Shown in pieces: positions 10,311-47,925 of a stretch of DNA of 48,095 nt. The stretch covers positions 1 to 48,095 of the forward strand of contig DAIPYY010000001.1 in assembly GCA_036782475.1 (NCBI GenBank). The letters are read 5' to 3'. Made by a program: the position numbers and the translations under genes. The stretch comes from Candidatus Saccharimonadota bacterium. Lineage in GTDB: Bacteria > Patescibacteriota > Saccharimonadia > Saccharimonadales > UBA4665. Each line of letters begins with the position of its first letter. Position 1 is the stretch's first letter. The notes beneath the pieces were generated by a model. That model saw only the letters and a list, made by a program, of their open reading frames with translations, did not search any database and had not been told where the DNA came from.

Positions 10311-10357
10311 TCCACCCCCTTGTCCGGTAGCGCCGGACACGTCATTGTTGCCTTATG

Positions 10358-10379
10358 GCACCATTGTAGCAAATGGTGC
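10358..10379. promoter_or_regulatory. perfect 8-bp inverted repeat GCACCATT-N6-AATGGTGC enclosing a -10 box
   Basis: Arms at 10358-10365 and 10372-10379. On the minus strand the centre reads TGcTACAAT, a -10 for the 9711..10310 gene. Confidence 0.4.
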
Positions 10380-10422
10380 AAATAAGCACTAGCGGGAAAC
10401 GTCAGGCACAAATTTCACCCTC

Positions 10423-10431
10423 TGATACAAT
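10423..10431 (+). promoter_or_regulatory. extended -10 TGaTACAAT for argS (ATG 6 nt downstream)
   Basis: cTGaTACAATagaggcATG. Confidence 0.45.
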
Positions 10432-10437
10432 AGAGGC

Positions 10438-12189
10438 ATGAAAACAGCGTTGGAACAGGCGATCGCCGACATTGTGCGGACTCATTACGATATTGAGACA
10501 GCCGTGGAATTGACGCGGCCGGAGGTACAGTTCGGTGACTACGCCACCAACATCGCCCTGCAGCTTGCGGGCAGATTAGGACGGAACCCCCGGGAAATCG
10601 CCGAGGAAATCGCTGCGCGACTCCGCGAAGCCGGCAAGGCCTCGGAAGCCACGGTCGCCGGGGCGGGTTTCATCAATATCCGGCTGTCCGACGTGGCCCT
10701 GCTTGAGCTGGCAAAGGCACAGCCAGCAAAGCCCCGGGAAGGCACGACCGTTGTCATCGAGACGAACAATCCGAATCCTTTCAAGGCCATGCATATCGGT
10801 CATGCCATGAACGCCATCGTCGCCGACACCATCGCCAACCTGCTCCAAGCAAGCGGCGCACATACGTACCGCGTCAGTTATCACGGCGATGTCGGGCTGC
10901 ATGTCGGCAAAAGCATGTGGGCGCTGCTGCGTTACGTAGACGGCGACGCATCAAAGTTGGACGTCGTACCGGCCGGTGAGCGCAATGAGTTCATGAGCCG
11001 GATGTACGCCGAAGGTTCACAGGCGTACAAAGATGATGAAACGGCCAAGGCTGAGATCGCTGAGCTCGCAAAGCAGTCATTCACTCGCGAGGACCCGCTC
11101 TACGCCAGCGTCTATGAGACCGTGTTCGCCTGGAGCTTCATGGAAATCGACGGCAACATGCGCCGGCTCGGCAACCAGCCGGTCGAACGGAAGTTCCTCG
11201 AAAGTGACGCAGATATGCGCGGGGTCAAGATTGTCCGGGACAACGTGCCAACAGTATTTCAGGAAAGTAACGGCGCCCTCGTTTTCAAGGGGTCAGAACA
11301 TGGTACGTTTGACAATGCGTTCGTCTCGTCGAACGGGCAGGGGCTCTACGCCGCACGCGACCTGGGACTGATCCAGCTCAAGAACGAGCAGTATCATCCG
11401 GACAAAAGCTACATTATCACCGCCGAAGAGCAACGCGACTACTTCAAGGGTGTACTCGCCGCGGCCGGGCTGTGTTTTCCGGAGTTCAAAGACGTTACCG
11501 TCAATATCCCGACGGGCATGGTGAAACTGTCGACGGGCAAAATGAGCTCGCGCGACGGCGGCGTCATCACCATCTCCTGGCTGTTTGACCAGGTGGCCGA
11601 GGCTATCCGCGCACGGGGCGGGGAAGCGACCGAAGACATTATGGCCGGCGCCCTGCGATATGCGTTCCTGAAAGTCCGCGTCGGCGGCGATATCATCTTC
11701 GACATCAACGAATCAGTCAGCATCCAGGGTAATAGCGGTCCCTACCTGCAATACGCCCACGCACGGGCCAGGAGCATCTTGAGTAAAGCTCAAGATGCGG
11801 CAGCCGTGCACAGCACGGCCGCGAGCGAGAAGCGAGCGGGGGAGGAGCAGGCCGATACGAGTGGAAGCGACATATCACCTGCGGAAGGGGCAAAGCCCCT
11901 CCTATTTGATGGAGGAGAAGCCCAAACTCTTCACCCCGACGAGCGCCTCCTTCTCCGTAAACTCACCGAATACAACGCGGCGATCGAAAAGGCCATAGAC
12001 GAGCTGCTGCCCCACTACATCTGTACCTACCTCTACGAGCTCGCTCAGGAATTCAATCGGTTCTACGAAAAAAACCGCGTCATCGGCGACGAACGGCAAG
12101 ACCTACGCCTCTGGCTGGTCGAGGCCTACGCCGATACGCTCCGGAGTGGCCTTACTCTCCTTGGCATCCACGCCCCGGACAGGATGTAG
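10438..12189 (+). CDS. argS: arginine--tRNA ligase
   Basis: NPNPFKAMHIGHAMN (HIGH), class I core, and C-terminal DALR anticodon-binding domain (YICTYLYELAQEFNRFYE). A low-complexity insertion lies before the DALR domain. Confidence 0.9.
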   Translation: MKTALEQAIADIVRTHYDIETAVELTRPEVQFGDYATNIALQLAGRLGRNPREIAEEIAARLREAGKASEATVAGAGFINIRLSDVALLELAKAQPAKPREGTTVVIETNNPNPFKAMHIGHAMNAIVADTIANLLQASGAHTYRVSYHGDVGLHVGKSMWALLRYVDGDASKLDVVPAGERNEFMSRMYAEGSQAYKDDETAKAEIAELAKQSFTREDPLYASVYETVFAWSFMEIDGNMRRLGNQPVERKFLESDADMRGVKIVRDNVPTVFQESNGALVFKGSEHGTFDNAFVSSNGQGLYAARDLGLIQLKNEQYHPDKSYIITAEEQRDYFKGVLAAAGLCFPEFKDVTVNIPTGMVKLSTGKMSSRDGGVITISWLFDQVAEAIRARGGEATEDIMAGALRYAFLKVRVGGDIIFDINESVSIQGNSGPYLQYAHARARSILSKAQDAAAVHSTAASEKRAGEEQADTSGSDISPAEGAKPLLFDGGEAQTLHPDERLLLRKLTEYNAAIEKAIDELLPHYICTYLYELAQEFNRFYEKNRVIGDERQDLRLWLVEAYADTLRSGLTLLGIHAPDRM

Positions 12190-22810: not shown

Positions 22811-23233
22811 TTATGCCGCGATAGTGCTTGTTTTGTTGAGCACGAAGTGAACGATGACCTGTGCCAGCGCCACGATAACGAGGCCGATAAGCGCGTAGAT
22901 GATGGTGTTTTTCGCGTTCGTGATCTTGCCGCTCTCGCCACCGGAGGTGATGTATTTGGCACCGCCCCAGATAATCATGATGACGGCGATCACACCGACT
23001 ACTACGGAGATGATGTTCACGATAAGGGTAATGATGTCGGTCAGGTTGTCACCTGTCGAAGTGTCACCCGGGGTACAATCACCGCTTAAGTCGCCATCGA
23101 GGTTAGTTCCTTGCGATAGACAGTCGGTAATGCTCGATTGAGCGTATACCGGTGCCGAAAGGGCAAGGGGAACTCCAACGACCGCCAGAGCGACTAAAAG
23201 GCCGGCGGCAATTCTTTTTATCTTTGCTATCAT
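22811..23233 (-). CDS. T4SS pilin, VirB2/TrbC-like (paralogue 1, candidate major pilin)
   Basis: Signal peptide ending PVYA/QS, Cys pair (DC...DC), two hydrophobic helices flanking the loop AKYITSGGESGKITNAKN. Own promoter, SD and terminator. Confidence 0.8.
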   Translation of the reverse strand: MIAKIKRIAAGLLVALAVVGVPLALSAPVYAQSSITDCLSQGTNLDGDLSGDCTPGDTSTGDNLTDIITLIVNIISVVVGVIAVIMIIWGGAKYITSGGESGKITNAKNTIIYALIGLVIVALAQVIVHFVLNKTSTIAA

Positions 23234-23269
23234 ATCAGTTCATTTCCTTTCTTATTGCTTTACGTTTAG

Positions 23270-23297
23270 TGTATATCACGTTTGGGGCATTTTTCAA
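23270..23297 (-). promoter_or_regulatory. promoter TTGAAA-16 nt-TGaTATACA in front of pilin paralogue 1
   Basis: Minus strand reads TTGAAAaatgccccaaacgTGaTATACA, then a leader of about 30 nt with AAGGAAA. Confidence 0.55.
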
Positions 23298-23313
23298 CTA
23301 TAAACCCTCTCTT

Positions 23314-23745
23314 TTACCCGAGCGGCACGAGGCGGACTATAGAAGTTTTCTCTTTTGGAGTAGCAGCCTCCTTCGTCACTTTGAGCACATTACGCACGAG
23401 GAATTGTGCAAGGGCTACGATAACGAGACCGATGACGGCATAGATCAGGGCATTTTTTGCGGTCGTGACTTTGTTGGTATCACCGCCGGACGTGATGTAC
23501 TTCGCACCAGCGAAGATTATCATGATCACGGCCAGCAGACCGACAATGATACTGAGCACGTTGATGACCGACCGTATGACACTGGTAAGATCACCGCCGC
23601 CGTTGTCGTCGCAGTTCGTTCCGCTGCCGACAGCCTCGCAGACCGTTTCTTTGGTGGTCGCGGCACTTGCTGTCGCGGGCGTCGCGACGATTGCCGTCAG
23701 GGGGACAATGATGCTGAGCGTAAGTATGAGAAACCATTTTTTCAT
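23314..23745 (-). CDS. T4SS pilin, VirB2/TrbC-like (paralogue 2)
   Basis: Signal peptide ending ATASA/AT, Cys pair (VCEAVGSGTNC), helix-loop-helix with AKYITSGGDTNKVTTAKN. Starts 1 nt after the upstream stop, with SD AGGGGG inside the upstream gene. Confidence 0.8.
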   Translation of the reverse strand: MKKWFLILTLSIIVPLTAIVATPATASAATTKETVCEAVGSGTNCDDNGGGDLTSVIRSVINVLSIIVGLLAVIMIIFAGAKYITSGGDTNKVTTAKNALIYAVIGLVIVALAQFLVRNVLKVTKEAATPKEKTSIVRLVPLG

Positions 23746-23746
23746 A

Positions 23747-24154
23747 TTATAAAAACCCCCTTATGATCGCTACTATTATGACATCTGCAAGCGCGATAAT
23801 CACAAGGCCGACGAGCGCTCCAATGAGCGCATTACGCGCACCGACCGCCTTTTGGGTGTCACCGCCGGAAGTGATATACCGCATTCCCGAGACGATGATG
23901 ATAAAGACGGCGGCGATACCCGCTATAAGCGCGATAAGCTGAGTAACTCTGATAAGTATTCCGTCGCTTCCTGTAAGTGGGTTTGCTTCCGGGTCAGTAG
24001 TTTCACAGGTAGGTGAATCAGTGGCTTTACCAGTGCATGCTTCTTCGAGTATGTTAGTCTCAGCCGCAAATACCGGCTGTGTGAGGGTGAATGGCGCAGC
24101 AAGTCCACTGAGCATGAGCAGGGAAATCACCATTAGCATAATCTTCCGAATCAT
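23747..24154 (-). CDS. T4SS pilin, VirB2/TrbC-like (paralogue 3)
   Basis: Start at ATG 24154 (TGATG overlap with the upstream stop). Signal peptide ending PVFA/AE, Cys pair (ACTGKATDSPTC), loop MRYITSGGDTQKAVGARN. Confidence 0.8.
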   Translation of the reverse strand: MIRKIMLMVISLLMLSGLAAPFTLTQPVFAAETNILEEACTGKATDSPTCETTDPEANPLTGSDGILIRVTQLIALIAGIAAVFIIIVSGMRYITSGGDTQKAVGARNALIGALVGLVIIALADVIIVAIIRGFL

Positions 24155-24471
24155 CAGGATACTCCCTGGATAGCAAAGGTGACAATAGCGACTGCCGATA
24201 CCGAGACTATTAGCCCGATTGCGGCATACAAGATGCCCTGGCGGGCTTCCGCCATCTTTTGCGGCTCGCCGTTCGCGGTGATATACCGGAAACCGTTGAT
24301 GACGATCATCAGCAGGGCAATTGCAGCAGCAAGTCCGAACGCGATGGTCAAGCCATTGCGCCACAACATTTTCGCGCGGTCGCCCGGATCCATATTCGGC
24401 AAGGGAGAGAGGTCTATCTGCGGCGTGGTTGCCGCCACCTTGAGCAGGAAGGCGTGAAGTTGTGTCATCAT
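24154..24471 (-). CDS. VirB2/TrbC-like pilin paralogue 4 (short, no classical signal peptide, no Cys pair)
   Basis: 105 aa with two hydrophobic helices flanking FRYITANGEPQKMAEARQ. ATGA overlap with the upstream gene and TGATG overlap with the downstream gene. Confidence 0.7.
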   Translation of the reverse strand: MMTQLHAFLLKVAATTPQIDLSPLPNMDPGDRAKMLWRNGLTIAFGLAAAIALLMIVINGFRYITANGEPQKMAEARQGILYAAIGLIVSVSAVAIVTFAIQGVS

Positions 24472-25244
24472 GATGTCAAAGCCTTTCCGAGGAAGACAAC
24501 GACTCCCCTTGCTACAAGCGCAACTGCCAGCGCAATAAGCGCATTGATAATCGTACTCTGGGCGCGCTTCGTTATATCGGGCGTACCTTGGCTCGTGATG
24601 TACTGTATGCCTCCTGTCACGATGAATGCGATGGCGATATAGGCAGTGACAATGAGAAGGTCATCGACAATGGCAAGTGCGACCGCCGGGATTACGCCTA
24701 CGTTACCCCCCGAGGGTAGCAACGGTAGGTCCTGGCTGACATTACAAGTCTGAGGGTTGATTTGATTCTGCGGAATATATGCATACCATGTTTTGAGGCC
24801 AAGGAATTGGCGCTGACAGCTCACGCCGCTCGTCTGTACGACATTATATGGGGTCATAAACTGTACGAACGAGCCGAGCAACAGGAATGCCACAAGCCCC
24901 ACCAGCGCCTGCGTGATGGTACGTTTGCCCTTGGCGACCTTTTGCGGATCGCCGGCCGAAGAGCCATATTGTATGGCACCCCATATGATACCACCGACAA
25001 CAGCAACTCCTGCAACTATGGCAAGGAGTCGTATGAGCGGGTTGACATACTTTGCGACGGCGCATGACGTTGCATCACCTTGCGACCCCGTCGGGCAGCA
25101 GACTCTGCCCTGCTTATCACTCGTAAGCGGCGTTTGGCCGGCAGGACATGCCGCACTCGCGACCGGCGGGAACGCCATAGTGACCGTCAAGAACAAGCCG
25201 ACTGATACAAACAGAAGCGCGATACACGAAAGCAATCGTTTCAT
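24468..25244 (-). CDS. tandem double-module VirB2/TrbC-like pilin
   Basis: Signal peptide ending VASA/AC. Module 1 loop is IQYGSSAGDPQKVAKGKR and module 2 loop is IQYITSQGTPDITKRAQS. Each loop sits between two hydrophobic helices and each module follows a Cys-containing external segment. Confidence 0.75.
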   Translation of the reverse strand: MKRLLSCIALLFVSVGLFLTVTMAFPPVASAACPAGQTPLTSDKQGRVCCPTGSQGDATSCAVAKYVNPLIRLLAIVAGVAVVGGIIWGAIQYGSSAGDPQKVAKGKRTITQALVGLVAFLLLGSFVQFMTPYNVVQTSGVSCQRQFLGLKTWYAYIPQNQINPQTCNVSQDLPLLPSGGNVGVIPAVALAIVDDLLIVTAYIAIAFIVTGGIQYITSQGTPDITKRAQSTIINALIALAVALVARGVVVFLGKALTS

Positions 25245-25316: not shown

Positions 25317-26510
25317 TTATTCGATTCGCTCAAGACCGCCAAGCCATTTCGACCGCGACCAATCGCAAATGACAATATTAGGGTTGTAGCTCAACGTTGC
25401 TTGCTGCGAATCCTCGACCATGGGAGGAGTAATATTTTGCATCATATCCCAGTCCATGAATCCATCAAGCCCATCTTTTCGTTGACTCACATGGAAAAAT
25501 TGCACAAGTGAAAATTTGCCACTCTCAGGAGCAATCTGTCCTGATGGGTTATAGTATGCTTCGCTTACTCCTGCTTCCGGCGCATACACCGCCATGGTCA
25601 GCACGCTATTTCTTTTCTCATCGGAGTTTTTTTGCTGGTCGCGAGCAGCTGCAAATACATATAACGCACCGTCGGGATTGTTTATAGGATCGTATTCGGC
25701 ACATTTTGCATCACCGCCCCTTGAAGTTATCCATTCATAGTCGTACGCGAGCGGCTTTTGTCCGCCCCAGTCCGGATGGTATGAATTAATAATAATCGTA
25801 GGATCGGCCACGTTGTCCCGCATCCACTCTTCACGAGTGCCGATACCCCAGAAGGGATCTTGCGCGTATTCGTAAACCCCTTTTGGCCGCACGTCGAGCA
25901 TAGAAATGACTTTGCGTGCATTCGTACGATCACCGTTTTGGTAGAGTAGCTTCGCCGTTTTTTGTAACATAGACAAACGGATCATTAACATCTGGGGGTC
26001 ATCGACGGATGTTGCCATCCAAGGGGCATAGCCTGCTTCGAGCGTTTCTACGATTTGCTCCCTCAGTTTTGCGTTTGAAACTTTGGAACCTTCGACCAGA
26101 TCATGCGTGATGCCCTGTAAGAACTGTGATTTAGTCTCTGGATCCTGTCCTATGAATTTCTTTTCGCTCATCTTTTTGGCCTTTGCGTACTTCGGGGGCA
26201 CCTCATAGCTCGACTGCGGGGCCTGCTCTGAAGGGGTGGCACTGGACGAGGGACTGGATTCGGTCGCGGTGGGTGTAGGTGTCTCCGAGGCGGGCGGAGT
26301 GGTAGGATCAAGCGTAGAAGAAACGGGAGTCGGAGTTGTGTCGGCGGGATTGATTTCACCGGGAGCGGTAGCGCAGCCGGACAGGGCAAAGGCCCCGACC
26401 GCAGTTATCGCGACGGCTTTTCGGGACATACGTTCATATATACCGACCACTGTCTGTCTTACATAATCAAAAGCTCGCGCGCTTTCTTGATGCAGTGCTG
26501 TCTCGCCCAT
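25317..26510 (-). CDS. putative lipoprotein (Pro/Thr/Ser-rich linker plus about 300-aa globular domain), heads the pilin region
   Basis: Lipobox AFALSGC after a hydrophobic segment. ATG 26510 has a strong SD (GAGGAGGaaacgATG). An internal ATG at 26429 would give a canonical MSRKAVAITAVGAFALSGC signal. Confidence 0.7.
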   Translation of the reverse strand: MGETALHQESARAFDYVRQTVVGIYERMSRKAVAITAVGAFALSGCATAPGEINPADTTPTPVSSTLDPTTPPASETPTPTATESSPSSSATPSEQAPQSSYEVPPKYAKAKKMSEKKFIGQDPETKSQFLQGITHDLVEGSKVSNAKLREQIVETLEAGYAPWMATSVDDPQMLMIRLSMLQKTAKLLYQNGDRTNARKVISMLDVRPKGVYEYAQDPFWGIGTREEWMRDNVADPTIIINSYHPDWGGQKPLAYDYEWITSRGGDAKCAEYDPINNPDGALYVFAAARDQQKNSDEKRNSVLTMAVYAPEAGVSEAYYNPSGQIAPESGKFSLVQFFHVSQRKDGLDGFMDWDMMQNITPPMVEDSQQATLSYNPNIVICDWSRSKWLGGLERIE

Positions 26511-26718: not shown

Positions 26719-29700
26719 ATGAAACATAAACTGAAACTTTCTTTTTGGGCACTGGGAATCCTCGTCCTCATCATGTCCCAGCTTTTCCTCCTCGCCCCCG
26801 CGCAGAAAGCTTCCGCGCAAAGCCTGACTATTGATAGCCTACGGGATAAGACTCATGCTTTCGCGGTATACACCGTATGGCATAGATGTCTCTCCGAATA
26901 CGATGGGACTAGAGTAACAAATTTGAGGATGAACCTTAATTTCGGTACGAACCAGAAAACGTACATCCTCGGTTTTGCACGATCTGACGGTGACAATAAC
27001 GACGGGACAATAGCATGTTCTGACGCGGCGCGGCTCTGGGCTGCTCTTGCGGGCTACTCGGATGCAGACACCATGATGAAGGATCTCGGTTTTACGGTAA
27101 CGGTGCCTGGCTGTACCAGCGCACCCTGCACGACCGCCGGAGTTACATACTATGAGCTTGGTAAAACAACATCGAAATCATCTCTTCCCGGTAAGGTCGA
27201 GTCCATTTCTAGAGAGAAGGGAATTGCTACGTCTCTCCCCACGTGGGGTAGGTATATTCTTTCGGCCACAGCGGCAGAGGCAAAATGCCAGCCATCAAGC
27301 ACGACGGGGCCGGCAGCCCGCGCCAATCCAACGGTTAGTATTAACGTAGTTGGAGATGATATGGGCACCCTGGTCAGCAAGACATATGATGTCAGCACCT
27401 CCGAAATCGTGCCTGCATACCCGAACATGAGCGGAGGGAATAATGCGAGCTGTAAGTATCTAACCGATGATATTAAGGCCAGTGCCACAAAGTTTAGCAG
27501 TGCCCTTGTCGAAGACCGCATCACCACCGCTATTTCGCTTGCCGAAACTGCCATTTGCGAGCAGTTGCAAATAACAAACGACCGGGAAAAACAGAATTGT
27601 CTCAGTAACTTTGGTTCTTACCTTAAAACCTGTATCGACGACTACTACACCGGTAATCTGACGTCGGGTACTCGCAGCAGGGCAGATCCATTTGACACGG
27701 ATTACGTAGCAACTTGCGTCGAAACCAAAGCAAAAAAAGCAGGCTACAATATCTCTGCAGAAGATATCTCATCCATTCTAGGCGACGCTCAAAATCAAGC
27801 TACACCGAGCACAACCCCTTCGAGCGATTCGGCTACCGATATATGTGACATCCTTGGTGAAGAAGTGCCCATGAAGTGGATGGCATGCGCGGTACTCACT
27901 GCCATGAACGGTATCGTCAACGCCCTCTACGACATGATTCAAAACCTGCTCTACACCCCCATCGACCAAACATTGGCATCGAATCAGTACAATACAAGCA
28001 TCTCGAATTTCCGCATCTTCGGCATGGCTTTTATCTTCATCATCGGACTTATCATGGTGATAGCACAGGCAACAGGATCCGAGATAGTCGACGCATACAC
28101 CGTGCGAAAGGTCCTGCCAAAACTTGGCATTGCTATCATCGGCATTGCTATCGCCGTACCTATCCTCAAGATTCTTATCACCTTCACCAATGACCTCGGT
28201 ATAATGGCGGGCAATTTTATTACCGACATAGCGCCGACAGAGGTCATTAAATCAAATGCAGTAAAAAGTGATGCCGTGGGAGCTCTCGTCGGAACGGGTA
28301 CGCTTGGTATTATTGGCATACTAACCGCCGCAGTCGCACTGGTTGCCCAAGGGCCGGCGGCACTCACTTACATAGTCGTGGCCGTGGTGGCGCTACTCAT
28401 CGCCTTCGTCACGCTAGCCATGCGGCAGCTCGTCATCATCGTGCTTATCCTTTTCGCGCCTATTGCTATAGCCGCTTCCGCACTGCCCGGCACAGAAAAA
28501 CTTTGGAAGTTTTGGCGCGGCACGCTCATCACCACGCTCATGATGTTCCCCATCATCATGATCTTTCTCAAATCCGGTGTTTTCATGGCGTCAATCTTTG
28601 GCAATATCGGCGACCAGCTGAACAACCAAATGTACTACCTCATCGCAGCAGTCATATTTATCGCACCGTATTTTATGCTACCGCTCGCATTCAAGATGGC
28701 CGGTGGCCTCGTCGGCAATATATTTGGCATGGTCAATGACCGCAGCAAAGGCCTCTTCGACCGCATGCGCAATATGCGAGGCAATGCGATGAAGAAAAAC
28801 TGGCAAGGTTTAATGGAGGGGAATAGATACAAAGGGAATACAAGACTTGGCAACTTCATAAACAAGGCCGGAACTACTGCAAACGCATTTAGAACTGGCC
28901 AGGTAGGATACGATATGTCCCAATGGGGATCGCAAGTTAGGAGCGCTCAATCGAGGCAAGACCTTACGGCCGCAGAAGAAGCCCTGCAGAAGAATCCTCA
29001 TATGATGCGTCTCAAGTCCAATGACGACTACATGAGTGCTGCGATTCGCTTCCAAAATGCCGAGCAGCAGAAGGCTTTCCTCATGAACAAAGGCTACAGC
29101 GACACAGAATCAAGCGAAGCGGTTGCAACGATACGTTCTGCACGACGAAGCATGTCAAATGAAGCATTTGAAAATGCTGCCATGTTAGCGCTCCCCGGAA
29201 CCGGCACGTATGCGAAAACTGTGTGGAATGCTCAAACCCAGCAGTTTGAGGGCGGTAAGGCAGAGATGCTTCAGGATATTTTACGTCTTAGCAATGGAGA
29301 TCAAAACCGTGCCGACACCCTGCTTGCTATGATGCGTCAAGGCGCCCAAGGCGCAAGGCGGTTCGATCTTGCTGGCGGTAGCTATGGTGACGATAGAAGC
29401 AGAATGTATGCATTCGCAAGTGGCACAAGGAGCTCGGATGAGGTCAATAAGGAGTCTATCCAGGACTTCATCAAATCAAATGGTGCGGGTGCTATAGCTC
29501 AGGTCCGCGGTAATACGGTCAAACCTTTCGCGGAAGTTATTGCCCAGGATCTCCAAGCGGCTCAGCAGCAATACGGGTTTAATTCTCCTGAATTCCAGAA
29601 GAAGCTCGCCTCCGTTGCTGGCCTATACGATACCATGGGGTCTGCCTCTCCTGAGAATGCTGAAGAATACGCAGACGTGGTTATGTCCTTGCAGTTTGCT

Positions 29701-29898
29701 GGCGGTACACAGGATGTCCAGCAGCTAATCGAAGCCAACAGGGCAAACCCAGACTTTGTTAAAATGCGGCGTGAATATCAGAGTCAATATGCATATCAAG
29801 CAGCCCAAGCGGCTCAGCAACAACCGCCTCCCGCTGGTGGGCCAGGAGGACCTGGTGGACCTCAACCTGGTCAGCCAGGAGGACCTGCTGGACCCTGA
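26719..29898 (+). CDS. VirB6/TrbL-like polytopic T4SS membrane protein with a large Cys-rich ectodomain and a long cytoplasmic tail
   Basis: Signal peptide (..AQKASA/QS), a Cys-rich external domain of about 400 aa, about 7 TM helices (aa about 425-665), then a tail of about 390 aa ending QQQPPPAGGPGGPGGPQPGQPGGPAGP. Confidence 0.65.
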   Translation: MKHKLKLSFWALGILVLIMSQLFLLAPAQKASAQSLTIDSLRDKTHAFAVYTVWHRCLSEYDGTRVTNLRMNLNFGTNQKTYILGFARSDGDNNDGTIACSDAARLWAALAGYSDADTMMKDLGFTVTVPGCTSAPCTTAGVTYYELGKTTSKSSLPGKVESISREKGIATSLPTWGRYILSATAAEAKCQPSSTTGPAARANPTVSINVVGDDMGTLVSKTYDVSTSEIVPAYPNMSGGNNASCKYLTDDIKASATKFSSALVEDRITTAISLAETAICEQLQITNDREKQNCLSNFGSYLKTCIDDYYTGNLTSGTRSRADPFDTDYVATCVETKAKKAGYNISAEDISSILGDAQNQATPSTTPSSDSATDICDILGEEVPMKWMACAVLTAMNGIVNALYDMIQNLLYTPIDQTLASNQYNTSISNFRIFGMAFIFIIGLIMVIAQATGSEIVDAYTVRKVLPKLGIAIIGIAIAVPILKILITFTNDLGIMAGNFITDIAPTEVIKSNAVKSDAVGALVGTGTLGIIGILTAAVALVAQGPAALTYIVVAVVALLIAFVTLAMRQLVIIVLILFAPIAIAASALPGTEKLWKFWRGTLITTLMMFPIIMIFLKSGVFMASIFGNIGDQLNNQMYYLIAAVIFIAPYFMLPLAFKMAGGLVGNIFGMVNDRSKGLFDRMRNMRGNAMKKNWQGLMEGNRYKGNTRLGNFINKAGTTANAFRTGQVGYDMSQWGSQVRSAQSRQDLTAAEEALQKNPHMMRLKSNDDYMSAAIRFQNAEQQKAFLMNKGYSDTESSEAVATIRSARRSMSNEAFENAAMLALPGTGTYAKTVWNAQTQQFEGGKAEMLQDILRLSNGDQNRADTLLAMMRQGAQGARRFDLAGGSYGDDRSRMYAFASGTRSSDEVNKESIQDFIKSNGAGAIAQVRGNTVKPFAEVIAQDLQAAQQQYGFNSPEFQKKLASVAGLYDTMGSASPENAEEYADVVMSLQFAGGTQDVQQLIEANRANPDFVKMRREYQSQYAYQAAQAAQQQPPPAGGPGGPGGPQPGQPGGPAGP

Positions 29899-40730: not shown

Positions 40731-41840
40731 ATGGCTACCTATAAAGTACTACAGGATATTGAGGCAGAGGACAAGCTCGTCGGTCCGTTTACTTTGTGGC
40801 AGTTCATCTATCTGTTCGTGGCGGGCGCTTGCGGCTACCTGAGCTTCATCTCAATCGCAAAGAATGTGCCGATTTTCCTTATCCTTCTCCTGCCGGTTAC
40901 CTTGTTTGCGGGCTTCTTAGCCATCCCCTGGGGGAGTGACCAGCCGACAGAGATATGGGCACTTGCGAAACTGCGGTTTTTCCTGAAGCCGCGGCGACGT
41001 ATCTGGAACCAGGACGGCATGACTGAACTCGTCAGTATTACGGTGCCGAAGACGATCGAACGGCAGCTGACGAACGGGCTCAATCAGCATGAAGTCCATA
41101 GCAGGCTGAACGCCCTCGCAAGTACGCTCGACAGCCGTGGATGGGCGGTCAAGAATATTAATGTCAATTTATCCGCTTTGCCCACAGCCACGATGCAGCC
41201 GTCCGACCGCCTCGTCGATGTCGGGTCAATACCCCAAGAAGTGATAGCGGTGGATGTACGCCCGGGAGACGATATCTTGGATGAGACTGCCAATACGGTC
41301 GCTCATAATTTCGACGCGATGATCGACGAAAGAACCTCCCAGAAGCGGCAAAAACTGGTTGATTTCATGAACAACCCCTTGCCGGAATCGCCGTCAGCCG
41401 TCCCCGCGGCTGCACCGCTGCCGGCAGTATCTGCCGCACAGCCTGTTTCGGCGCCCGCTCAAGCGGCCCAGTGGTTTGCTCCGCCTCCTACTGCCGCTGC
41501 TCCATTTGCTGCCCCCATCATGTCGCCTGCCGCACCGCAGCCCGTCATGAGCATGGCAGTTCCGCAGGCGGTGGAGCCGACCGCCGCCGAAGAGGCGCTT
41601 GTCGCTCAGCTGAAAGCAAAAAACGAGCAACAGGAAAGCGCCTACACGCACCTGCAAAGTATCAAGACACCGGAAGAGCTGGAGGCGGAAGCGGCAGCCC
41701 AGCAAGTTGCTCCCCCAGAGACGCCGCCGCGTATGACATCAGAGAAGCAGGCTGCTATAATGAACCTATCACGAGACGACAATAAAAGTATTGCAACGCT
41801 CGAGAAAGAAGCGAATGAAGTGGTAATTTCGCTTCATTAG
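40731..41840 (+). CDS. PrgI/VirB3-like T4SS membrane protein with a long Ala/Pro-rich C-terminal extension
   Basis: N-terminus YKVLQDIEAEDKLVGPFTLWQFIYLFVAG plus two TM helices is the PrgI-family pattern found directly upstream of VirB4 in Gram-positive-type T4SS. About 250 extra residues follow. Confidence 0.7.
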   Translation: MATYKVLQDIEAEDKLVGPFTLWQFIYLFVAGACGYLSFISIAKNVPIFLILLLPVTLFAGFLAIPWGSDQPTEIWALAKLRFFLKPRRRIWNQDGMTELVSITVPKTIERQLTNGLNQHEVHSRLNALASTLDSRGWAVKNINVNLSALPTATMQPSDRLVDVGSIPQEVIAVDVRPGDDILDETANTVAHNFDAMIDERTSQKRQKLVDFMNNPLPESPSAVPAAAPLPAVSAAQPVSAPAQAAQWFAPPPTAAAPFAAPIMSPAAPQPVMSMAVPQAVEPTAAEEALVAQLKAKNEQQESAYTHLQSIKTPEELEAEAAAQQVAPPETPPRMTSEKQAAIMNLSRDDNKSIATLEKEANEVVISLH

Positions 41841-41866: not shown

Positions 41867-42802
41867 ATGAATCCAAACCAACAATATCAACAACCAACTC
41901 AGCCACAACCCCAGTATGTACCACCAGCTGGCATGCCGGCAGCACAGCCGCAGTACGCCGCTACAGCACAGCCTATGCCAATCAATACCATACCGCCCGC
42001 TCCCTTGCAGGCCGTCAGTGCCGCGCCGGGTCAGCAGGCTCCGCCCGCCGGAGCTGGGGCAATAGCACCCAAGACAAATCCCAACAGCACGCAGAACACG
42101 CTTCTCATATCTGAAATTCGCGACGGTGTCGTCATCATGAGCGACGGCAGCTTCCGGGCGGTCGTCATGGTCAAAAGCATCAACTTTGACCTGATGAGCC
42201 CGCAGGAGCAAGAAAGCATCGAATACGGGTACCAGGGGTTCCTGAACTCGTTGTATTTCCCGATTCAGATTTTCCTGCGGTCGGAAAAAGTCGATTTACA
42301 GCCCTACATCGAGCGCCTCGACAAAATCCGCACCGAACACGACAACATGCTGCTCGCCATGCTGATGGAAGATTACATCAACTACATCGACCAGCTGGCA
42401 CTCCAGACCAACATCATGGACAAGAAGTTTTACATCGTGATACCGTATTTCCCGACCGCCAACCCAGAGATGGCGACGACCCAGAACAAGAATTTCTTTA
42501 AAGGGCTCGTCGAGATGTTCAGTAAGCAGGAAAACCATATTGTCATCAATGAGGCGGACCTGGAAAAAGCCAAGGCCGAGCTGCGCAACCGTGTCCAAGC
42601 GGTGTTGGGAGGGCTGCAGCAATGTTCCATCCAGGGGCTGCCGCTTGACACCCAGGAGCTCATCGAGCTGTACTATGACACCTACAACCCGGATACCGCC
42701 ACCAGGCAACAGCTCAAGAATTTCAATGATTTGACCGCTGACATCGTCACGAAAGGCGAGGGCATGGCACAACAGGCACATCTGCAAAGGGAGTTACAGT
42801 AA
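41867..42802 (+). CDS. stand-alone VirB4 N-terminal-domain-like protein with a Gln/Pro-rich N-terminus
   Basis: No P-loop. The segment order parallels the N-domain of the next gene: FRAVVMVKSINFDLMS with ARTYYVYGYPRQVFTG, FPIQIFLRSEKVDLQPYIERL with IDISIYVYPVESQLVLDNL, and KKFYIVIPYF with FFRFGLYFTIYA. The TAATG overlap couples it to VirB4. Confidence 0.55.
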   Translation: MNPNQQYQQPTQPQPQYVPPAGMPAAQPQYAATAQPMPINTIPPAPLQAVSAAPGQQAPPAGAGAIAPKTNPNSTQNTLLISEIRDGVVIMSDGSFRAVVMVKSINFDLMSPQEQESIEYGYQGFLNSLYFPIQIFLRSEKVDLQPYIERLDKIRTEHDNMLLAMLMEDYINYIDQLALQTNIMDKKFYIVIPYFPTANPEMATTQNKNFFKGLVEMFSKQENHIVINEADLEKAKAELRNRVQAVLGGLQQCSIQGLPLDTQELIELYYDTYNPDTATRQQLKNFNDLTADIVTKGEGMAQQAHLQRELQ

Positions 42803-44715
42803 TGGCAAAACAAAAGATCGATCCCGTCCTCTTGGCGCAGCAACAGCGGGCCCGCGAGCAGGCTGAAGTAGCCGAAGCATTCCGCAAAGGCGTGACGGCG
42901 CTCCGCGATTTTATCGCCCCCAGCAGTATTGAGTTCTTCGGCAGCTATTTCCAGCTTGGCACGCGCCTGGCCCGAACCTACTATGTCTACGGCTACCCCC
43001 GACAGGTGTTTACCGGCTGGCTCAGCGGACTCGTCAACCTCGATGAAATCATAGATATATCGATTTACGTCTATCCTGTCGAGAGCCAGCTTGTGCTCGA
43101 TAACTTACGCAAGAAAGTCACCCAGCTCGAAGCGGGCCTCCAGATCGACGCAGAAAAGGGCCGGGTACGCGATCCGAGCAAGCAGGCTGCCATCCTCGAC
43201 GCCGAGGAAATGCGGGACAAACTCCAGGTGGGCGAGGAGCGGTTCTTCCGTTTCGGACTGTATTTCACCATCTACGCCAACTCACAGGATGAGCTTGAGT
43301 TCATCAGCCATAAAGTGGAAAGTATGCTCGGCCAGCAGCTTGTCTACAGCAAAGCCGCGACCAGCCAACAGGAACAGGGACTCAACAGCGTCGCACCGCA
43401 GATGGTCGACCAGCTTCAAATCCGGCGTAACATGTCGACAGGCGCCATCAGCACGAGCTTCCCGATCACTTCGGCCGATCTTACCCAGGATAATGGCATC
43501 CTTTACGGCATCAACATGCATAATAGCGGATTGGTCATTTTCGACCGGTTCACACTCGAGAACGGCAACTCGGTCGTCTTCGCGAAATCCGGCGCCGGCA
43601 AATCATTCACCGTAAAACTTGAAGCATTGCGCAGCCTGATGTTCGGCACGGAAATCATCATCATCGACCCAGAGAATGAGTATGAACGCATGTGCGACGC
43701 TGTCGGCGGAGCGTATGTCCGGCTCAGCCTCAATTCTTCGACACGCATCAACCCGTTTGACCTGCCGAAAGTCGTTGACGTCGAAGAGGCCGACAACGCC
43801 CTTCGCTCCAGCCTGATCACACTGCACGGACTGCTCCGCCTCATCATGGGCGGCGCACAGGCGCAGCTCGTCGGCGGCAACACCACGATTATGCCGGCGC
43901 TCAGCCCGTCGGAAGAAGCCGACCTCGACGCGGCACTCATCACGACATACGAGAAAGCGGGTATCACCCAAGATCCTCTGACTCATACCGGAATCCCACC
44001 TACTATAACCGACCTCTATGATACGCTGCTACACATGGGTGGTAATGGGCCGCAGCTGGCCCAGCGGCTACGCAAGTATACTAGCGGCACGTTCGCCGGC
44101 ATATTCAGCCAGCAGAGCAACATCGACATCAACAACCCGATGGTCGTCTTCAACGTCCGCGATCTCGAGGACGAACTGCGGCCGGTCGCGATGTACATCG
44201 TATTGAATTACATCTGGAACAAGACGAAGAGTGACCAAAAACGCCGCATCCTCATCGTTGACGAGGCATGGCAGCTCATGAAGTACGAAGACAGCGCTAA
44301 CTTCCTTTTCAGCCTCGCCAAGCGCGCACGTAAATACAATCTCGGTATTACGACTATCACGCAAGATGTCGAGGATTTCATGGGATCGCGCATGGGCCGT
44401 GCTATCGTCGCCAATGCCAGTATGCAGATACTCCTCAAACAGAGCCCGAGCGCCATCGACGTTCTTGCCGACGTGTTCAAACTGACAAGCGAGGAGAAAA
44501 AGCGTCTTGGACAATTCCCAGTAGGACAAGGCCTGTTTTTCGCCGGCCAAAACCATGTCCACATCCAGGTCGTCGCCAGCCCCACCGAAACGGGACTCAT
44601 CACCACCAATCCGACGCAAGTACAGGCTATCAAGCAAGGCGACCTAAACCAGCCCCAGGGAACCATCGACCTTCAAAACCAACTCTACCCCGGGAGTATG
44701 AATAACTTGTCGTAA
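42802..44715 (+). CDS. virB4: T4SS VirB4-family ATPase (Gram-positive PrgJ/TcpF type)
   Basis: Walker A AKSGAGKSF (about 43582-43608), IIIDPENEY, Walker B RILIVDEAWQL, ITTITQDVEDF. Confidence 0.88.
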   Translation: MAKQKIDPVLLAQQQRAREQAEVAEAFRKGVTALRDFIAPSSIEFFGSYFQLGTRLARTYYVYGYPRQVFTGWLSGLVNLDEIIDISIYVYPVESQLVLDNLRKKVTQLEAGLQIDAEKGRVRDPSKQAAILDAEEMRDKLQVGEERFFRFGLYFTIYANSQDELEFISHKVESMLGQQLVYSKAATSQQEQGLNSVAPQMVDQLQIRRNMSTGAISTSFPITSADLTQDNGILYGINMHNSGLVIFDRFTLENGNSVVFAKSGAGKSFTVKLEALRSLMFGTEIIIIDPENEYERMCDAVGGAYVRLSLNSSTRINPFDLPKVVDVEEADNALRSSLITLHGLLRLIMGGAQAQLVGGNTTIMPALSPSEEADLDAALITTYEKAGITQDPLTHTGIPPTITDLYDTLLHMGGNGPQLAQRLRKYTSGTFAGIFSQQSNIDINNPMVVFNVRDLEDELRPVAMYIVLNYIWNKTKSDQKRRILIVDEAWQLMKYEDSANFLFSLAKRARKYNLGITTITQDVEDFMGSRMGRAIVANASMQILLKQSPSAIDVLADVFKLTSEEKKRLGQFPVGQGLFFAGQNHVHIQVVASPTETGLITTNPTQVQAIKQGDLNQPQGTIDLQNQLYPGSMNNLS

Positions 44716-44724
44716 GGACCATTC

Positions 44725-47700
44725 ATGGCATCGTCACAAACACTCATTCCTACGGGAGAAAATCAATACGACGACGAAGATATGGAGCGCCTGAGGCGCC
44801 AGGAACGTGGTGTCACAGCCGCGGAAGACGGCGCTCCGACCGATGCTGTCGATATGAGCGGCATTGACCCGACCGCTGACCCCGACTATGTCGCACCTGC
44901 CGGAAAAGCTGGCGGCACTGCTGCCGGCGCCCCTAACTCCGCCTCAAACCTCGAACAAACAGCCCTTGGCAACCAGCCGGGCCTCGACGCGGAAGACGGT
45001 TTTTATACGGGAGGTGGAGGAAAGGGCAGAAAGCGCCGAAAATTCTGGACCAGACGACGGGCAATGGCGGGCGGCACTATCGCTGGATTTTTTGTAGGCG
45101 GGGGTATTCTCCTGTCGCCGTTCGTGATGGGTCCGCTTGAGTTCATCCATTTTGCACAGAGCCTTTCGGGCCCACACTTCGGTATATCCGAGCGTGCCAG
45201 CACACGAAATATAACCCGGTTCTATAAATTTATAACCGGGAGGGGCACAAGCACCTGTACCGCAAAAAACTGTCTCGTCCAAGATGGCGGCAAAGGAGAC
45301 ACACGCCTGAATTTCCTCGAGAGAAAATACAATAAAGTTATTTTCAAGAACATCGAGAGTAAGGGCTTCAAGATGTGGACCGATTCGAGGACGCAAACTT
45401 TTAAGGGATGGCGTATTGATACGTCCTCTAAAAATTCGCCGTTCAAGGGCATGAATGAGTCGATGATCGAAGATGCCCTGAAAGCATACGGCGTTAAAAA
45501 AGCAGATATTAAAAAAGTGGGCGGCACCGGGGGGTACTGGATAAAAAACGAGGCGCTGTTTAAGCGCGGCCAGACAAGGCTTGTAATGGCGATGTTGCAA
45601 GAGTCCGGCTATAGCAAAGTAGGATCGTGGATTAGGGCACGGCAACTCTGTAAATTCGCCGGCTGTGGTTTCCACCCCCTGAAAATATTGGACGAAAAAC
45701 TCAATGACAAACTCGACAAGGGACTCAAAAAACTGAAAGAAGAGTATGAAAAAAGCCGCAGGGCCAGTATCACCGGCACTGAAGCGTCAGGGGCGACTAT
45801 CGATACCACCAACACGGAGGAGCAAACAACCGGCGAGGACGGAGAACGCACCAACCAGTCTGTCGATGAATCCCTGAAGACCACGAAAACCACGACATCG
45901 CCGACGGCAATCAGTGATTTCATGAAATCTTTTGCCGCTCGTCCTTCCACGAAGATAAGTGCCAATGTTCTTGATGTTGTCGGTTATGCGTGTCTCGCCG
46001 CCAATATATATAAGGCTGCCGGCGATATCAACTTCGACCAAACTGTTATGCCGGCAATTAGGTTGGCAACGGAGCAAATCGCGACAGGCTCCCAAATAGA
46101 AGCAAGCAGCCTCATAGATGGTACCTTTAATTCAACAAGTCTTGAGCTTGCACATGAATACCTCGAGGCAAAGGATTCTTCTGGCAAAACAACAAGCTGG
46201 AGCGATGCTGCAAATATCCGCCAAAACAACGGTCTTAGCGGCGGGACGGATATTTCCTCGGATAAAAAAGAAATCTTATCGAACCCGGGCAAAGGCCCAT
46301 CCTGGCTTGAGTGGACCGAACCGATGGTAGACTTTTGCAGCAATCAAGCCATACAAGCTACTATGGGGGTACTTAGTATTGGGATAGGAGTGTTGAGTGG
46401 TGGTATGGTATCTACGATCGTGGGGGCTGTCGTTGGGTATTTTGCCGCCCCGGCAGCCCTAAATTTAATCGCGCAGAGTGTGGCAGGTAATGCTCTCGAT
46501 ATTGCCGGAGTAAAAGGAATCGAGATGGGTCAGTACGCTGATTTTGGGGCATTCTTTGGTGCTAATCTCGCAAGGCAGATGCGTGGAGGTAGGATCCTCA
46601 GCAGCGCAAGCGCGCTCAAACTTGCGCAAGATAATATGGATACCAAAAACGAAGAATTCGCATCGCAAAGTATCGCCTATAAACTCTTCAATGCATATGA
46701 CAGCAAATCGCTCATCTCGCGGGTCGTCGATACCCAGTCTACCTATGCGACCGAAAACATTGCGTCGACGATTAATAACTTCCTGGGTATCGGTACGAGC
46801 ACATTATCAACCATCGGCGGACTTTTCTCGAAAAAATCGAGCGCAGCAACTACTATGTACGATTATGGCATCCCGATGGTTGGATTCAGCCTCGAAGAGC
46901 AGGAAAACCCCCTTACGGAAAACCCGTATGAGAACGCAGCAATCGTAGGTGCCTTCCTCGACACTCCTGCCAGTAGCAGCCTCAAGGATCGTGCGCTGCG
47001 TTGTAACGGTGTAGAGTTCTACAAAGACGATCAATTTGGCTGGAGCATACGTAGCATCGCCGATCCGAACGCGGGCGCCGAGAATAATGTATTTCAAAAA
47101 TATGTCACCGGACATCTTGATAGTGACTGCGGTACCGATCCGGTCATCGCCGCCGCTGATTCGGATGCTACCGTTGCGACGGGAACGGGGTACGTAGCAG
47201 CAGCGGAAGATGACATGTGGACGCGCATGCGGAAGTTCATCGACGACCTCAGTGAGTTTGAGTCATACACGTGTCTTATGGCCGATGATGAAACCTCATG
47301 CGATAACAGCGGCTTCGGAGCTACTACTGCCGCCAGCAGTAGCACGGTCAATACCGACGACCTATACAAGGACTCAACCTCTATAAGTTGCGACACTCGC
47401 ACGAAAGATCTAGGAACACAAGAGGTCCAGCATGAAAGCAGTACATTTAAAATCAGGGTCTGCGGGATAAAAGAAATACCCAGTTCTGGACAGGAAAGCA
47501 CCAAAGGAAACCAGTACTACATCGAAGGCGCCGATGGCATGACAATCGTCAACTCAAGAGTATCGACGATCTTTATGAACCTGGCAGAGGATGCGACTGC
47601 GAATAATACTAAACTTTCAAGTAGCTCAAGTTTCCGCATGCACTCACATCAGCAAGATTTATGGAACGCCAATCCCGACCCGGAAGCAGTGGGGCCCCCG

Positions 47701-47925
47701 GGAAAAAGCAATCACGAAGTAGGAATAGCGGTGGACTTCAATACGGGTGGGTCGAAAAAATCAGGCGCATCATGCGACGCGAGGGCGACAAGTAGCTCAG
47801 CCATGTGGAAGTACCTCAACGGCTCATCGGGAGAGCCGGGCGCACAGAAATTCGGAATATACCAGTACGCCGTCGAGCCGTGGCATTGGGATGCATCCCC
47901 GACACGCTGTAAGGAGCCTTTGTGA
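44725..47925 (+). CDS. large membrane-anchored protein with a C-terminal M15 (VanY-type, LAS fold) D-Ala-D-Ala peptidase domain; candidate T4SS cell-wall hydrolase
   Basis: TM helix near aa 115-140 and a central TM cluster near aa 545-590. C-terminus has SSFRMHSHQQDLW, SNHEVGIAVDF (47707-47739) and EPWHWD (47875-47892), the SxxR / SxHxxGxAxD / ExxH zinc-peptidase pattern. Confidence 0.75.
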   Translation: MASSQTLIPTGENQYDDEDMERLRRQERGVTAAEDGAPTDAVDMSGIDPTADPDYVAPAGKAGGTAAGAPNSASNLEQTALGNQPGLDAEDGFYTGGGGKGRKRRKFWTRRRAMAGGTIAGFFVGGGILLSPFVMGPLEFIHFAQSLSGPHFGISERASTRNITRFYKFITGRGTSTCTAKNCLVQDGGKGDTRLNFLERKYNKVIFKNIESKGFKMWTDSRTQTFKGWRIDTSSKNSPFKGMNESMIEDALKAYGVKKADIKKVGGTGGYWIKNEALFKRGQTRLVMAMLQESGYSKVGSWIRARQLCKFAGCGFHPLKILDEKLNDKLDKGLKKLKEEYEKSRRASITGTEASGATIDTTNTEEQTTGEDGERTNQSVDESLKTTKTTTSPTAISDFMKSFAARPSTKISANVLDVVGYACLAANIYKAAGDINFDQTVMPAIRLATEQIATGSQIEASSLIDGTFNSTSLELAHEYLEAKDSSGKTTSWSDAANIRQNNGLSGGTDISSDKKEILSNPGKGPSWLEWTEPMVDFCSNQAIQATMGVLSIGIGVLSGGMVSTIVGAVVGYFAAPAALNLIAQSVAGNALDIAGVKGIEMGQYADFGAFFGANLARQMRGGRILSSASALKLAQDNMDTKNEEFASQSIAYKLFNAYDSKSLISRVVDTQSTYATENIASTINNFLGIGTSTLSTIGGLFSKKSSAATTMYDYGIPMVGFSLEEQENPLTENPYENAAIVGAFLDTPASSSLKDRALRCNGVEFYKDDQFGWSIRSIADPNAGAENNVFQKYVTGHLDSDCGTDPVIAAADSDATVATGTGYVAAAEDDMWTRMRKFIDDLSEFESYTCLMADDETSCDNSGFGATTAASSSTVNTDDLYKDSTSISCDTRTKDLGTQEVQHESSTFKIRVCGIKEIPSSGQESTKGNQYYIEGADGMTIVNSRVSTIFMNLAEDATANNTKLSSSSSFRMHSHQQDLWNANPDPEAVGPPGKSNHEVGIAVDFNTGGSKKSGASCDARATSSSAMWKYLNGSSGEPGAQKFGIYQYAVEPWHWDASPTRCKEPL

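Follow-up and report, generated by a model that had tools for sequence, protein, structure and literature searches.

In a 48,095-nt stretch of DNA from a Candidatus Saccharimonadota bacterium (contig DAIPYY010000001.1 of GenBank assembly GCA_036782475.1; hereafter, the window), a single open reading frame (ORF; 24468-25244, minus strand) encodes a 258-aa protein that carries in one chain two different hairpins of the type IV secretion system (T4SS) pilin family PF18895. We propose that this ORF is a selectively maintained fusion of the first and second pilin genes of the chromosomal, monoderm-type T4SS array of Saccharibacteria, and that its product probably acts as a covalent 1:1 pilin-1/pilin-2 heterodimer. 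The fused protein replaces both of the separate pilin genes 1 and 2. The pilin array is already known, and it is the fused 1+2 subunit that breaks the one-hairpin-per-chain rule of characterized VirB2 pilins; in the literature on T4SS pilins of Patescibacteria and Saccharibacteria we found the array described, and we found no description of 1+2, 2+3 or 2+3+4 fusions or of multi-module poly-pilins.

The ORF starts with ATG and runs without interruption over 258 codons under translation table 11 (the coordinates include the stop codon). A database call of the same protein (P0001) has 236 aa, starts at Met23 and has the signal peptide cut off; the 258-aa start is backed by homologues. All parts of the protein described here are encoded on the minus strand. 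Residues 1-31 (25152-25244) are a predicted signal peptide, recognized by hydropathy and sequence (MKR..., a hydrophobic core, and VASA followed by A at the cleavage point), that is kept in homologues. It is followed by the outer N-terminal segment of pilin 1 (residues 32-64; 25053-25151), containing C33, C49, C50 and C61, and by module 1, the pilin-1 hairpin (residues 65-133; 24846-25052; Pfam-matched stretch 74-128), in which two helices flank the loop SSAGDPQKVAKGKR. An inter-module segment (residues 134-183; 24696-24845) that runs from C143 through FLGLKTWYAYIP to C167, and that we assign below to the outer N-terminal domain of pilin 2, leads to module 2, the pilin-2 hairpin (residues 184-258; 24471-24695), which was delimited by internal alignment and has the loop TSQGTPDITKR between its helices.

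Hydropathy places the hydrophobic helices at approximately residues 65-94, 109-133, 180-216 and 230-258, and both intra-module loops are basic, with four K/R residues in the first and two in the second. The chain thus combines a secreted N-terminus with the hydrophobic two-helix hairpin and short basic loop, the hairpin being present twice. PF18895 (T4SS_pilin) matched the protein at 38.4 bits in two separate stretches (cut-off 26.6), while a search of the Pfam profile PF04956 (TrbC/VirB2) gave no match to it at E ≤ 0.1. The N- and C-terminal halves are 31% identical across 61 aa (BLASTP, E = 1e-6), and profiles of module 1 and module 2 built from 29 homologues aligned with an hhalign probability of 98.3% (E = 2.3e-14). 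Four Cys residues lie in the N-terminal outer segment and two between the modules; C49, C50 and C61 are present in at least 90% of the homologue sequences, the N-terminal segment has four Cys in 42 of 65 fused homologues, and a Cys pair on either side of a W[YF]xY motif is found in 64 of the 65.

AlphaFold2 modeled the full-length protein with a pLDDT of 70.8 and a pTM of 0.51 from an alignment of 29 sequences, and the mature protein with a pLDDT of 83.8 and a pTM of 0.64 from 64 sequences. Both models show four long helices; in the latter these are preceded by a small beta-hairpin formed by the N-terminal segment (pLDDT ~90), and its lowest-confidence part is the inter-module segment. Searches of PDB sequences with the profile and with the single sequence returned nothing relevant, and no solved pilin could be tied to the protein. 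The original prediction, made from the DNA letters of this region, had described a four-helix protein with two complete VirB2-like modules behind one signal peptide, each module built of an outer segment with Cys, a first helix, a basic loop and a second helix. The hydropathy profile, the sequence, the twofold PF18895 match, both alignments and the predicted structure bear out this description in full.

What the two modules are was settled by comparison with relatives. Full-length homologues from a word-indexed search formed about 57 clusters, with lengths of 255-285 aa, 41-85% identity and near-complete coverage; the matches ranked below them had a single module and spanned only half of the query. 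All named homologues were from Candidatus Saccharibacteria/Saccharimonadales. Invariant positions in the homologue alignment include residues in both modules and, between the modules, C143, F147, W153, Y156 and the motif FLGLKxWYAYLP. We surveyed 62 loci, taking one genome per GTDB species and calling ORFs with the standard stop codons, with hidden Markov models (HMMs) of module 1, module 2, the inter-module segment and the N-terminus. The original prediction had asked whether the fusion is conserved or split in orthologous loci, and both situations occur: a fused 1+2 gene is kept in 17 of the 62 species-level loci (L001-L015, L017 and L020), and the two pilins are split in most others. In the fused loci the fused gene is followed by four single pilins of about 100, 130, 140 and 140 aa, making five genes with six modules, and none of the 17 keeps a separate copy of pilin 1 or pilin 2. 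About 38 of the 62 loci have six separate pilin genes. Two fused loci, L010 and L014, lie on different contigs of one metagenome-assembled genome (CAZGGJ01), each with a fused gene (294 and 293 aa, respectively); they could be two loci in one genome or the product of a mixed bin.

In all 36 split loci compared, gene 1 scored best with the module-1 HMM (median 72 bits, versus 34.5 with module 2) and gene 2 scored best with the module-2 HMM (95 bits, versus 37.7 with module 1). Gene 2 of the split loci opens with the motif of the inter-module segment at its N-terminus, and the apparent linker of the fused protein is for this reason assigned to the outer N-terminal domain of pilin 2. These comparisons identify the protein as a fusion of two anciently diverged paralogues, pilin 1 and pilin 2, and not as a duplication inside one gene.

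Junctions between genes 1 and 2 in the split loci range from overlaps of 59 nt to gaps of 21 nt (-59 to +21 nt), use all three stop codons and occur in all three relative frames; by these features they are genuine operon junctions between tightly coupled genes. In six split loci gene 2 starts in frame 0-21 nt past the stop codon of gene 1, so that loss of a single stop codon could yield a fusion. The pilin-2 presequence is missing from the fused forms when their junctions are compared with those of split loci. In many split relatives this presequence has 10-16 residues and is uncharged and non-canonical, and in other lineages it is a normal signal peptide. Among the split loci that we inspected, pilin 2 often lacked a canonical signal peptide and began instead with a short uncharged stub, frequently ending in FAAxC ahead of the conserved Cys (e.g., L019, 10280-10648).

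The closest relative of the window, locus L065, has the same five-gene array with a fused ORF of identical length, whose protein is 85% identical to that of the window. Comparison of the two fused genes gave a ratio of nonsynonymous to synonymous divergence (dN/dS) of ~0.05; synonymous sites were close to saturation, and constraint was seen in both modules as well as in the linker. Judged by this divergence, the fused gene is genuine and under strong purifying selection.

To estimate the number of origins of the fusion we built trees from pilins 3-6 only, which are independent of the fused gene because it was excluded. In a neighbor-joining tree from BLOSUM distances, all 15 usable fused loci fell in one clade nested among split loci. 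We conclude that the 1+2 fusion most likely arose once and was kept through deep divergence, with proteins down to ~40% identity. Bootstrapping with Kimura distances speaks against a strict version of this conclusion: the fused loci were strictly monophyletic in only 45 of 200 and 57 of 200 replicates in two runs (~25%). The split locus L056 was the only intruder in 126 of 200 replicates, and at most one intruder was present in 86%. One fusion followed by one fission around the L056 lineage, or two fusions, might therefore also explain the distribution. We dropped strict monophyly in view of this weak support, and we claim only that one origin is likely because L056 usually joins the fused group in the bootstraps. 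Among the split loci, L056 is the one closest to the fused group; its aberrant pilin 2 (10336-11250) has 304 aa, its own signal peptide and a Cys-rich insertion of ~170 aa before its WYKYL motif.

The 1+2 fusion has company elsewhere in the family. In locus L027, pilins 2 and 3 are joined in one ORF (10311-11117, plus strand) and pilin 1 is separate. When 261 proteins from two homology searches were classified with position-specific HMMs, 66 were 1-2 fusions, 42 were 2-3 fusions (P0058, P0130 and ~40 others), four were 2-3-4 fusions, 87 were single pilin 2 and 39 were single pilin 1; the rest had four to eight modules and came from more distant lineages. Across 1.84 billion representatives, an exhaustive profile search detected 34,529 members of the PF18895 family at E ≤ 1e-3, many of them with several matched stretches. 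Multi-hairpin proteins are recurrent in the PF18895 family. Tandem hairpins are topologically easy, since each hairpin starts and ends outside the cell.

In the window itself, the pilin array comprises five consecutive PF18895 genes on the minus strand, fused gene first, with six modules in total. Pilin 3 (24154-24471; 105 aa; PF18895, 50.9 bits) has no Cys and no canonical signal peptide, its N-terminus being short and non-canonical, whereas the signal peptides of pilins 1, 4, 5 and 6 are normal. The start of the pilin-3 gene and the stop of the fused gene share 4 nt, and the gap between genes 2 and 3 has a median of -4 nt across 41 loci. Pilin 4 (23747-24154; PF18895, 35.7 bits), with a signal peptide and a Cys pair, has ~135 aa when read from an internal Met (MIRKIML...); a mechanically called ORF of 205 aa (23747-24364) is over-extended, the real start being the Met at 24154, and the orthologue in L065 has 136 aa. 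Pilin 5 (23314-23745; 143 aa; PF18895, 56.3 bits) scores 26.9 bits with PF04956, just below the cut-off of 27.9, and pilin 6 (22811-23233; 140 aa; PF18895, 58.5 bits) scores 31.5 bits, above it, which makes pilin 6 the array member most like VirB2. Pilins 5 and 6 are separated by a gap of 80 nt in the window (23234-23313). Across the 41 loci the last pilin gene always lies about 60-90 nt beyond pilin 5 (median 72 nt, interquartile range 63-86), unlike the other junctions, which overlap or nearly touch (medians -4 to +7 nt). A sigma-70-like site within the gap of the window (TTGAAA-18-TACACT, 23297-23268, minus strand) may act as an internal promoter and increase the expression of pilin 6. The array is followed downstream by an Hsp20 gene on the opposite strand.

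This gene order resembles that of the best studied relative. In Southlakia epibionticum ML1 (Se ML1), the T4SS cluster SEML1_0006-0019 is essential for growth on the host, and SEML1_0014-0019 are six consecutive PF18895 genes (132, 185, 103, 126, 127 and 138 aa) that all scored as essential by transposon sequencing (Tn-seq); SEML1_0013, divergent from them, is VirB6-like, with a TrbL/VirB6 protein as its top structural match, and downstream the array is bordered by the Hsp20 gene SEML1_0020 on the other strand (Wang et al. 2023, PMC10633639). The window shares with this array the PF18895 modules, their order and size pattern, the divergent VirB6-like gene upstream, the Hsp20 gene on the opposite strand downstream and the same phylum-level lineage. 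Its pilin cluster is, by these likenesses, a Saccharibacteria six-pilin array of the SEML1_0014-0019 type. It differs in that the counterparts of SEML1_0014 and SEML1_0015 form one ORF, in that the PrgI and VirB4 genes lie ~10.8 kb away behind housekeeping genes, and in that a gene for a 397-aa lipoprotein is inserted upstream of the array.

Each of the known VirB2 pilins has a single hairpin, and the homopolymers that they form contain bound lipid. The window protein resembles the VirB2/TrbC/TraA pilins of diderm T4SSs (PF04956) in its signal peptide, its two-helix hairpin with a short basic loop and the VirB3-, VirB4- and VirB6-like genes alongside. In contrast to them, it has two different hairpins per chain, no PF04956 match and a monoderm host, with no pilus observed so far. 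A recent survey found 441 arrays of 2-11 VirB2 genes among Patescibacteria; its authors drew an analogy with Bartonella and Anaplasma and suggested a role in antigenic or host-range variation (Quinonero-Coronel et al. 2025, PMC12102498). The arrays of Bartonella and Anaplasma likewise have several tandem virB2-like genes per T4SS locus, and they are read as sets of variants. In the arrays analyzed here, in contrast, positions are orthologous across species, purifying selection is strong and neighbors can be fused, a pattern that fits distinct subunits rather than variants.

Topology rules and what is known of VirB2 biogenesis indicate how the fused chain might sit in the membrane. After Sec insertion and cleavage of the signal peptide, which would leave a mature protein of 227 aa, the Cys-rich N-terminus of pilin 1 would lie outside, followed along the membrane by hairpin 1, the pilin-2 outer domain (again outside), hairpin 2 and an outside C-terminus. 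Each hairpin would be oriented as in a VirB2 pilin, because both basic loops are predicted to face the cytoplasm. Helix 2 of pilin 1 would run from the inside to the outside, and the pilin-2 outer domain could thus be carried across as nothing more unusual than an extracytoplasmic loop. Because many split pilin 2 proteins have a presequence of only 10-16 residues, the fusion looks like an alternative export route for this domain. The fused protein must do the work of both pilins and would therefore enforce 1:1 stoichiometry and proximity, and the fusion suggests that pilins 1 and 2 work side by side as a fixed 1:1 pair.

The inside-to-outside course of this helix is also that of a signal peptide, and the ORF could instead encode a polyprotein precursor in which a protease or signal peptidase cuts the variable spacer before Cys143 and releases ordinary pilins 1 and 2, making the fusion only a device of biogenesis. 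Consistent with this idea, the stretch from the conserved PGG tail to the first linker Cys is variable in length and dominated by S, G, T, N and P, and its pLDDT of 58-69 is the minimum of the model; in some homologues small residues also occupy positions -1 and -3 before the Cys. However, an AxA-type site is not consistently present, position -1 is R or Q in many homologues, and the putative site lies 10-25 residues past the hydrophobic helix, a distance that is far for signal peptidase I. The poly-pilins with four to eight modules, moreover, have short and diverse linkers. Weighing these observations, we consider processing into two ordinary pilins unlikely, and we retain the covalent heterodimer as our working model.

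How this pair would fit with the other pilins can be approached by 'Rosetta stone' logic: if two proteins are fused in one lineage, their unfused counterparts in others tend to interact. From the collinear fusions read in this way, together with the essentiality of the pilin genes in Southlakia, we infer that the six paralogues could be non-redundant subunits of one hetero-oligomeric assembly with the neighbor order 1-2-3(-4). The collinear 2+3 and 2+3+4 fusions, the coupling of genes 1-5, the positional orthology and the essentiality in Se ML1 fit non-redundant subunits better than interchangeable variants. A more specific model, in which six distinct pilins at fixed 1:1 stoichiometry, and in a fixed neighbor order that can be read from the fusions, form a hetero-oligomeric VirB2-like pilus, stalk or ring, is one that we offer tentatively, as a possibility short of an even chance. 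Known conjugative pili are all homopolymers, and we know of none built from six distinct pilins. In such an assembly pilin 6 would be the best candidate for a bulk subunit, because it is the most VirB2-like and is set off by the conserved gap from pilin 5; a part for pilins 1 and 2 as minor, initiating or base subunits is speculation, close in spirit to the role of fiber initiator, tip or adaptor that the original prediction suggested for a covalent dimer and that may yet hold. By function only, the minor-pilin priming complexes of type IV pili and type II secretion systems (T2SS), in which non-identical subunits with fixed roles start or cap a fiber, and the fused hairpin c-subunits of V/A-type ATPases, in which covalently joined hairpins fix ring stoichiometry, offer parallels; both are protein families unrelated to PF18895, and the likeness is one of analogy.

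Several points weigh against the subunit model and, in part, against the heterodimer itself. Joining two adjacent genes can be almost neutral as long as their products merely tolerate the tether, and read-through gives collinearity with gene order regardless of contact, which leaves the argument for neighbor order suggestive and not a proof. Polar effects could account for part of the Tn-seq essentiality of the individual Se pilin genes. Foldseek comparison of both AlphaFold2 models with the PDB gave no match at E ≤ 0.001 and only generic long-helix proteins (F-BAR, talin and others); simple helical hairpins are poorly told apart by structural comparison. Finally, none of the Patescibacteria has been seen to carry a T4SS pilus, and a 2024 perspective called the role of the T4SS completely unknown (PMC11665869); because no such pilus has been seen, the term 'pilin assembly' follows from family membership alone.

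This last point leaves room for a different arrangement, in which the PF18895 proteins do not make an extracellular pilus but stay in the membrane. Their six hairpins (2+1+1+1+1 in the window) would build a translocon ring or platform, and joined hairpins would fix its composition, as they do in the rotor rings of V/A-type ATPases. Monoderm T4SSs are otherwise without VirB2 pilins (PMC12102498, PMC12857230), which favors such a ring, as do the fixed set of six essential paralogues with its collinear fusions and a match of SEML1_0018 to ATP synthase subunit c in the ECOD database (Wang et al., Table S2, PMC10633639). On the other hand, pilins 5 and 6 match the TrbC/VirB2 family (pilin 5 just below the cut-off), and the outer domains, which are capable of forming disulfides, suggest surface exposure. 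We therefore give a purely membrane-resident ring a low probability.

The original prediction had regarded the protein as the product of an internal duplication, and as an architecture without parallel among characterized T4SS pilins. A tandem duplication inside one gene would have made a new four-helix pilin with a special role as a tip, initiator or adaptor that is absent from ordinary arrays; two homologous modules do lie within one ORF, and true internal duplications exist elsewhere in the family. The poly-pilins P0127 (four modules), P0128 (six) and P0230 (eight) have near-identical modules and for that reason are true, recent internal amplifications. Like the window protein, they have one signal peptide and tandem PF18895 hairpins and lie within pilin arrays, but their repeats are near-identical, whereas the window protein joins anciently diverged positional paralogues. 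Its modules are not each other's closest relatives, as those of the poly-pilins are: they are only 31% identical, and each is closer to, and orthologous with, a different separate gene of the split loci. Because the total stays at six modules in the fused loci, the fusion adds no new component. The five-gene, six-module structure of the fused loci and the orthology in 36 of 36 split loci thus refute an internal-duplication origin, and we rate the model of a duplication-born pilin with such a special role as very improbable. Nor is the architecture unique, since 2+3 and 2+3+4 fusions and poly-pilins with four to eight modules are common among uncharacterized PF18895 proteins.

Poly-pilins with one signal peptide followed by four to eight tandem PF18895 hairpins include P0127, P0128, P0135, P0151, P0208 and P0230; P0208 has in addition a C-terminal Cys-rich domain of ~230 aa. 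We considered whether gene calling with UGA as a sense codon had created false multi-module proteins, and rejected this, since the hexa-module ORFs of P0128 and P0135 (L063, 1777-3435, and L064, 76-1743), which lie within arrays alongside single pilins, are open under table 11 with its standard stops.

An assembly or sequencing artefact, in which a missed stop or frameshift joined two ordinary pilin genes, can be set aside almost entirely: although the pair is split in most relatives, in six of them in frame within 0-21 nt, and one apparent false fusion is known from another locus, the same fusion is present in 17 species-level genomes and 66 protein clusters from different sources, L065 has an ORF of identical length at saturated synonymous divergence with a dN/dS of 0.05, and the fused forms lack the pilin-2 presequence. 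The apparent false fusion is in locus L009, where a second 'double pilin' of 226 aa (10657-11337), a frameshift-like join of pilins 3 and 4, was not counted. Its pilin-3 part has, in place of helix 2, an out-of-frame stretch rich in Arg, Gly and His that continues into the pilin-4 signal peptide, and the join is probably an assembly error.

The remaining T4SS genes of the window lie on the plus strand. A VirB6-like polytopic membrane protein of 1059 aa (26719-29898), divergent from the pilin array, had no Pfam match, and its homologues flank the array in nearly all related loci. A PrgI (VirB3-like) protein (40731-41840; PF12666), syntenic with T4SS genes of related loci, is followed by a conserved T4SS-associated protein of 311 aa (41867-42802), whose gene separates PrgI from VirB4 in all related loci that extend to this region, and by a VirB4-like ATPase (42802-44715), recognized by its TraG P-loop (PF19044) and AAA_10 (PF12846) domains and by synteny. 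A 1066-aa protein with a C-terminal VanY peptidase domain (44725-47925; PF02557) is a candidate cell-wall hydrolase of the T4SS, its position right after VirB4 being the sole link.

The PrgI and VirB4 genes lie ~15 kb from the pilin array and are not adjacent to it. In related loci the genes for the VirB6-like protein, PrgI, the 311-aa protein and VirB4 are directly consecutive, whereas in the window they are split, with genes for a PP2C phosphatase, a P-type ATPase, PolA, dUTPase and two NUDIX proteins in the ~10.8 kb between the VirB6-like gene and PrgI. Because its remaining genes are housekeeping genes (aminoacyl-tRNA synthetases, PolA, dUTPase, P-type ATPase, tRNAs), we take the window to be chromosomal DNA. 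Between the VirB6-like gene and the array, on the minus strand, lies the gene for the 397-aa predicted lipoprotein (25317-26510), which has a lipobox (...ALSGC) and a Thr/Pro-rich linker. It had no Pfam match and no homologue among the 62 related loci, and for these reasons we do not assign it to the T4SS; L065 lacks the gene, and there the VirB6-like gene abuts the array directly.

In the single Saccharibacterium tested, the T4SS has been reported to be essential for epibiotic life, which raises the question why a monoderm T4SS should need six different VirB2-like pilins. The fusions offer testable constraints on this question: pilins 1 and 2 would be present at 1:1, in the same membrane orientation and probably adjacent, and pilin 2 would also pair with pilin 3. 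Purifying selection and position-by-position orthology argue against the published idea of antigenic or host-range variation. Multi-hairpin VirB2-like proteins with two to eight modules are common in Patescibacteria, and such fused proteins, as natural covalent sub-complexes, could ease expression, structure prediction and cryo-electron microscopy (cryo-EM) of a sub-complex; if the hetero-oligomer of six pilins is real, structural work could start from the fused protein as a covalent sub-complex that nature has already made. While the fusion does not show what the T4SS does, it recasts 'why six pilins?' as specific, testable predictions of how the pilins pair and in what stoichiometry.

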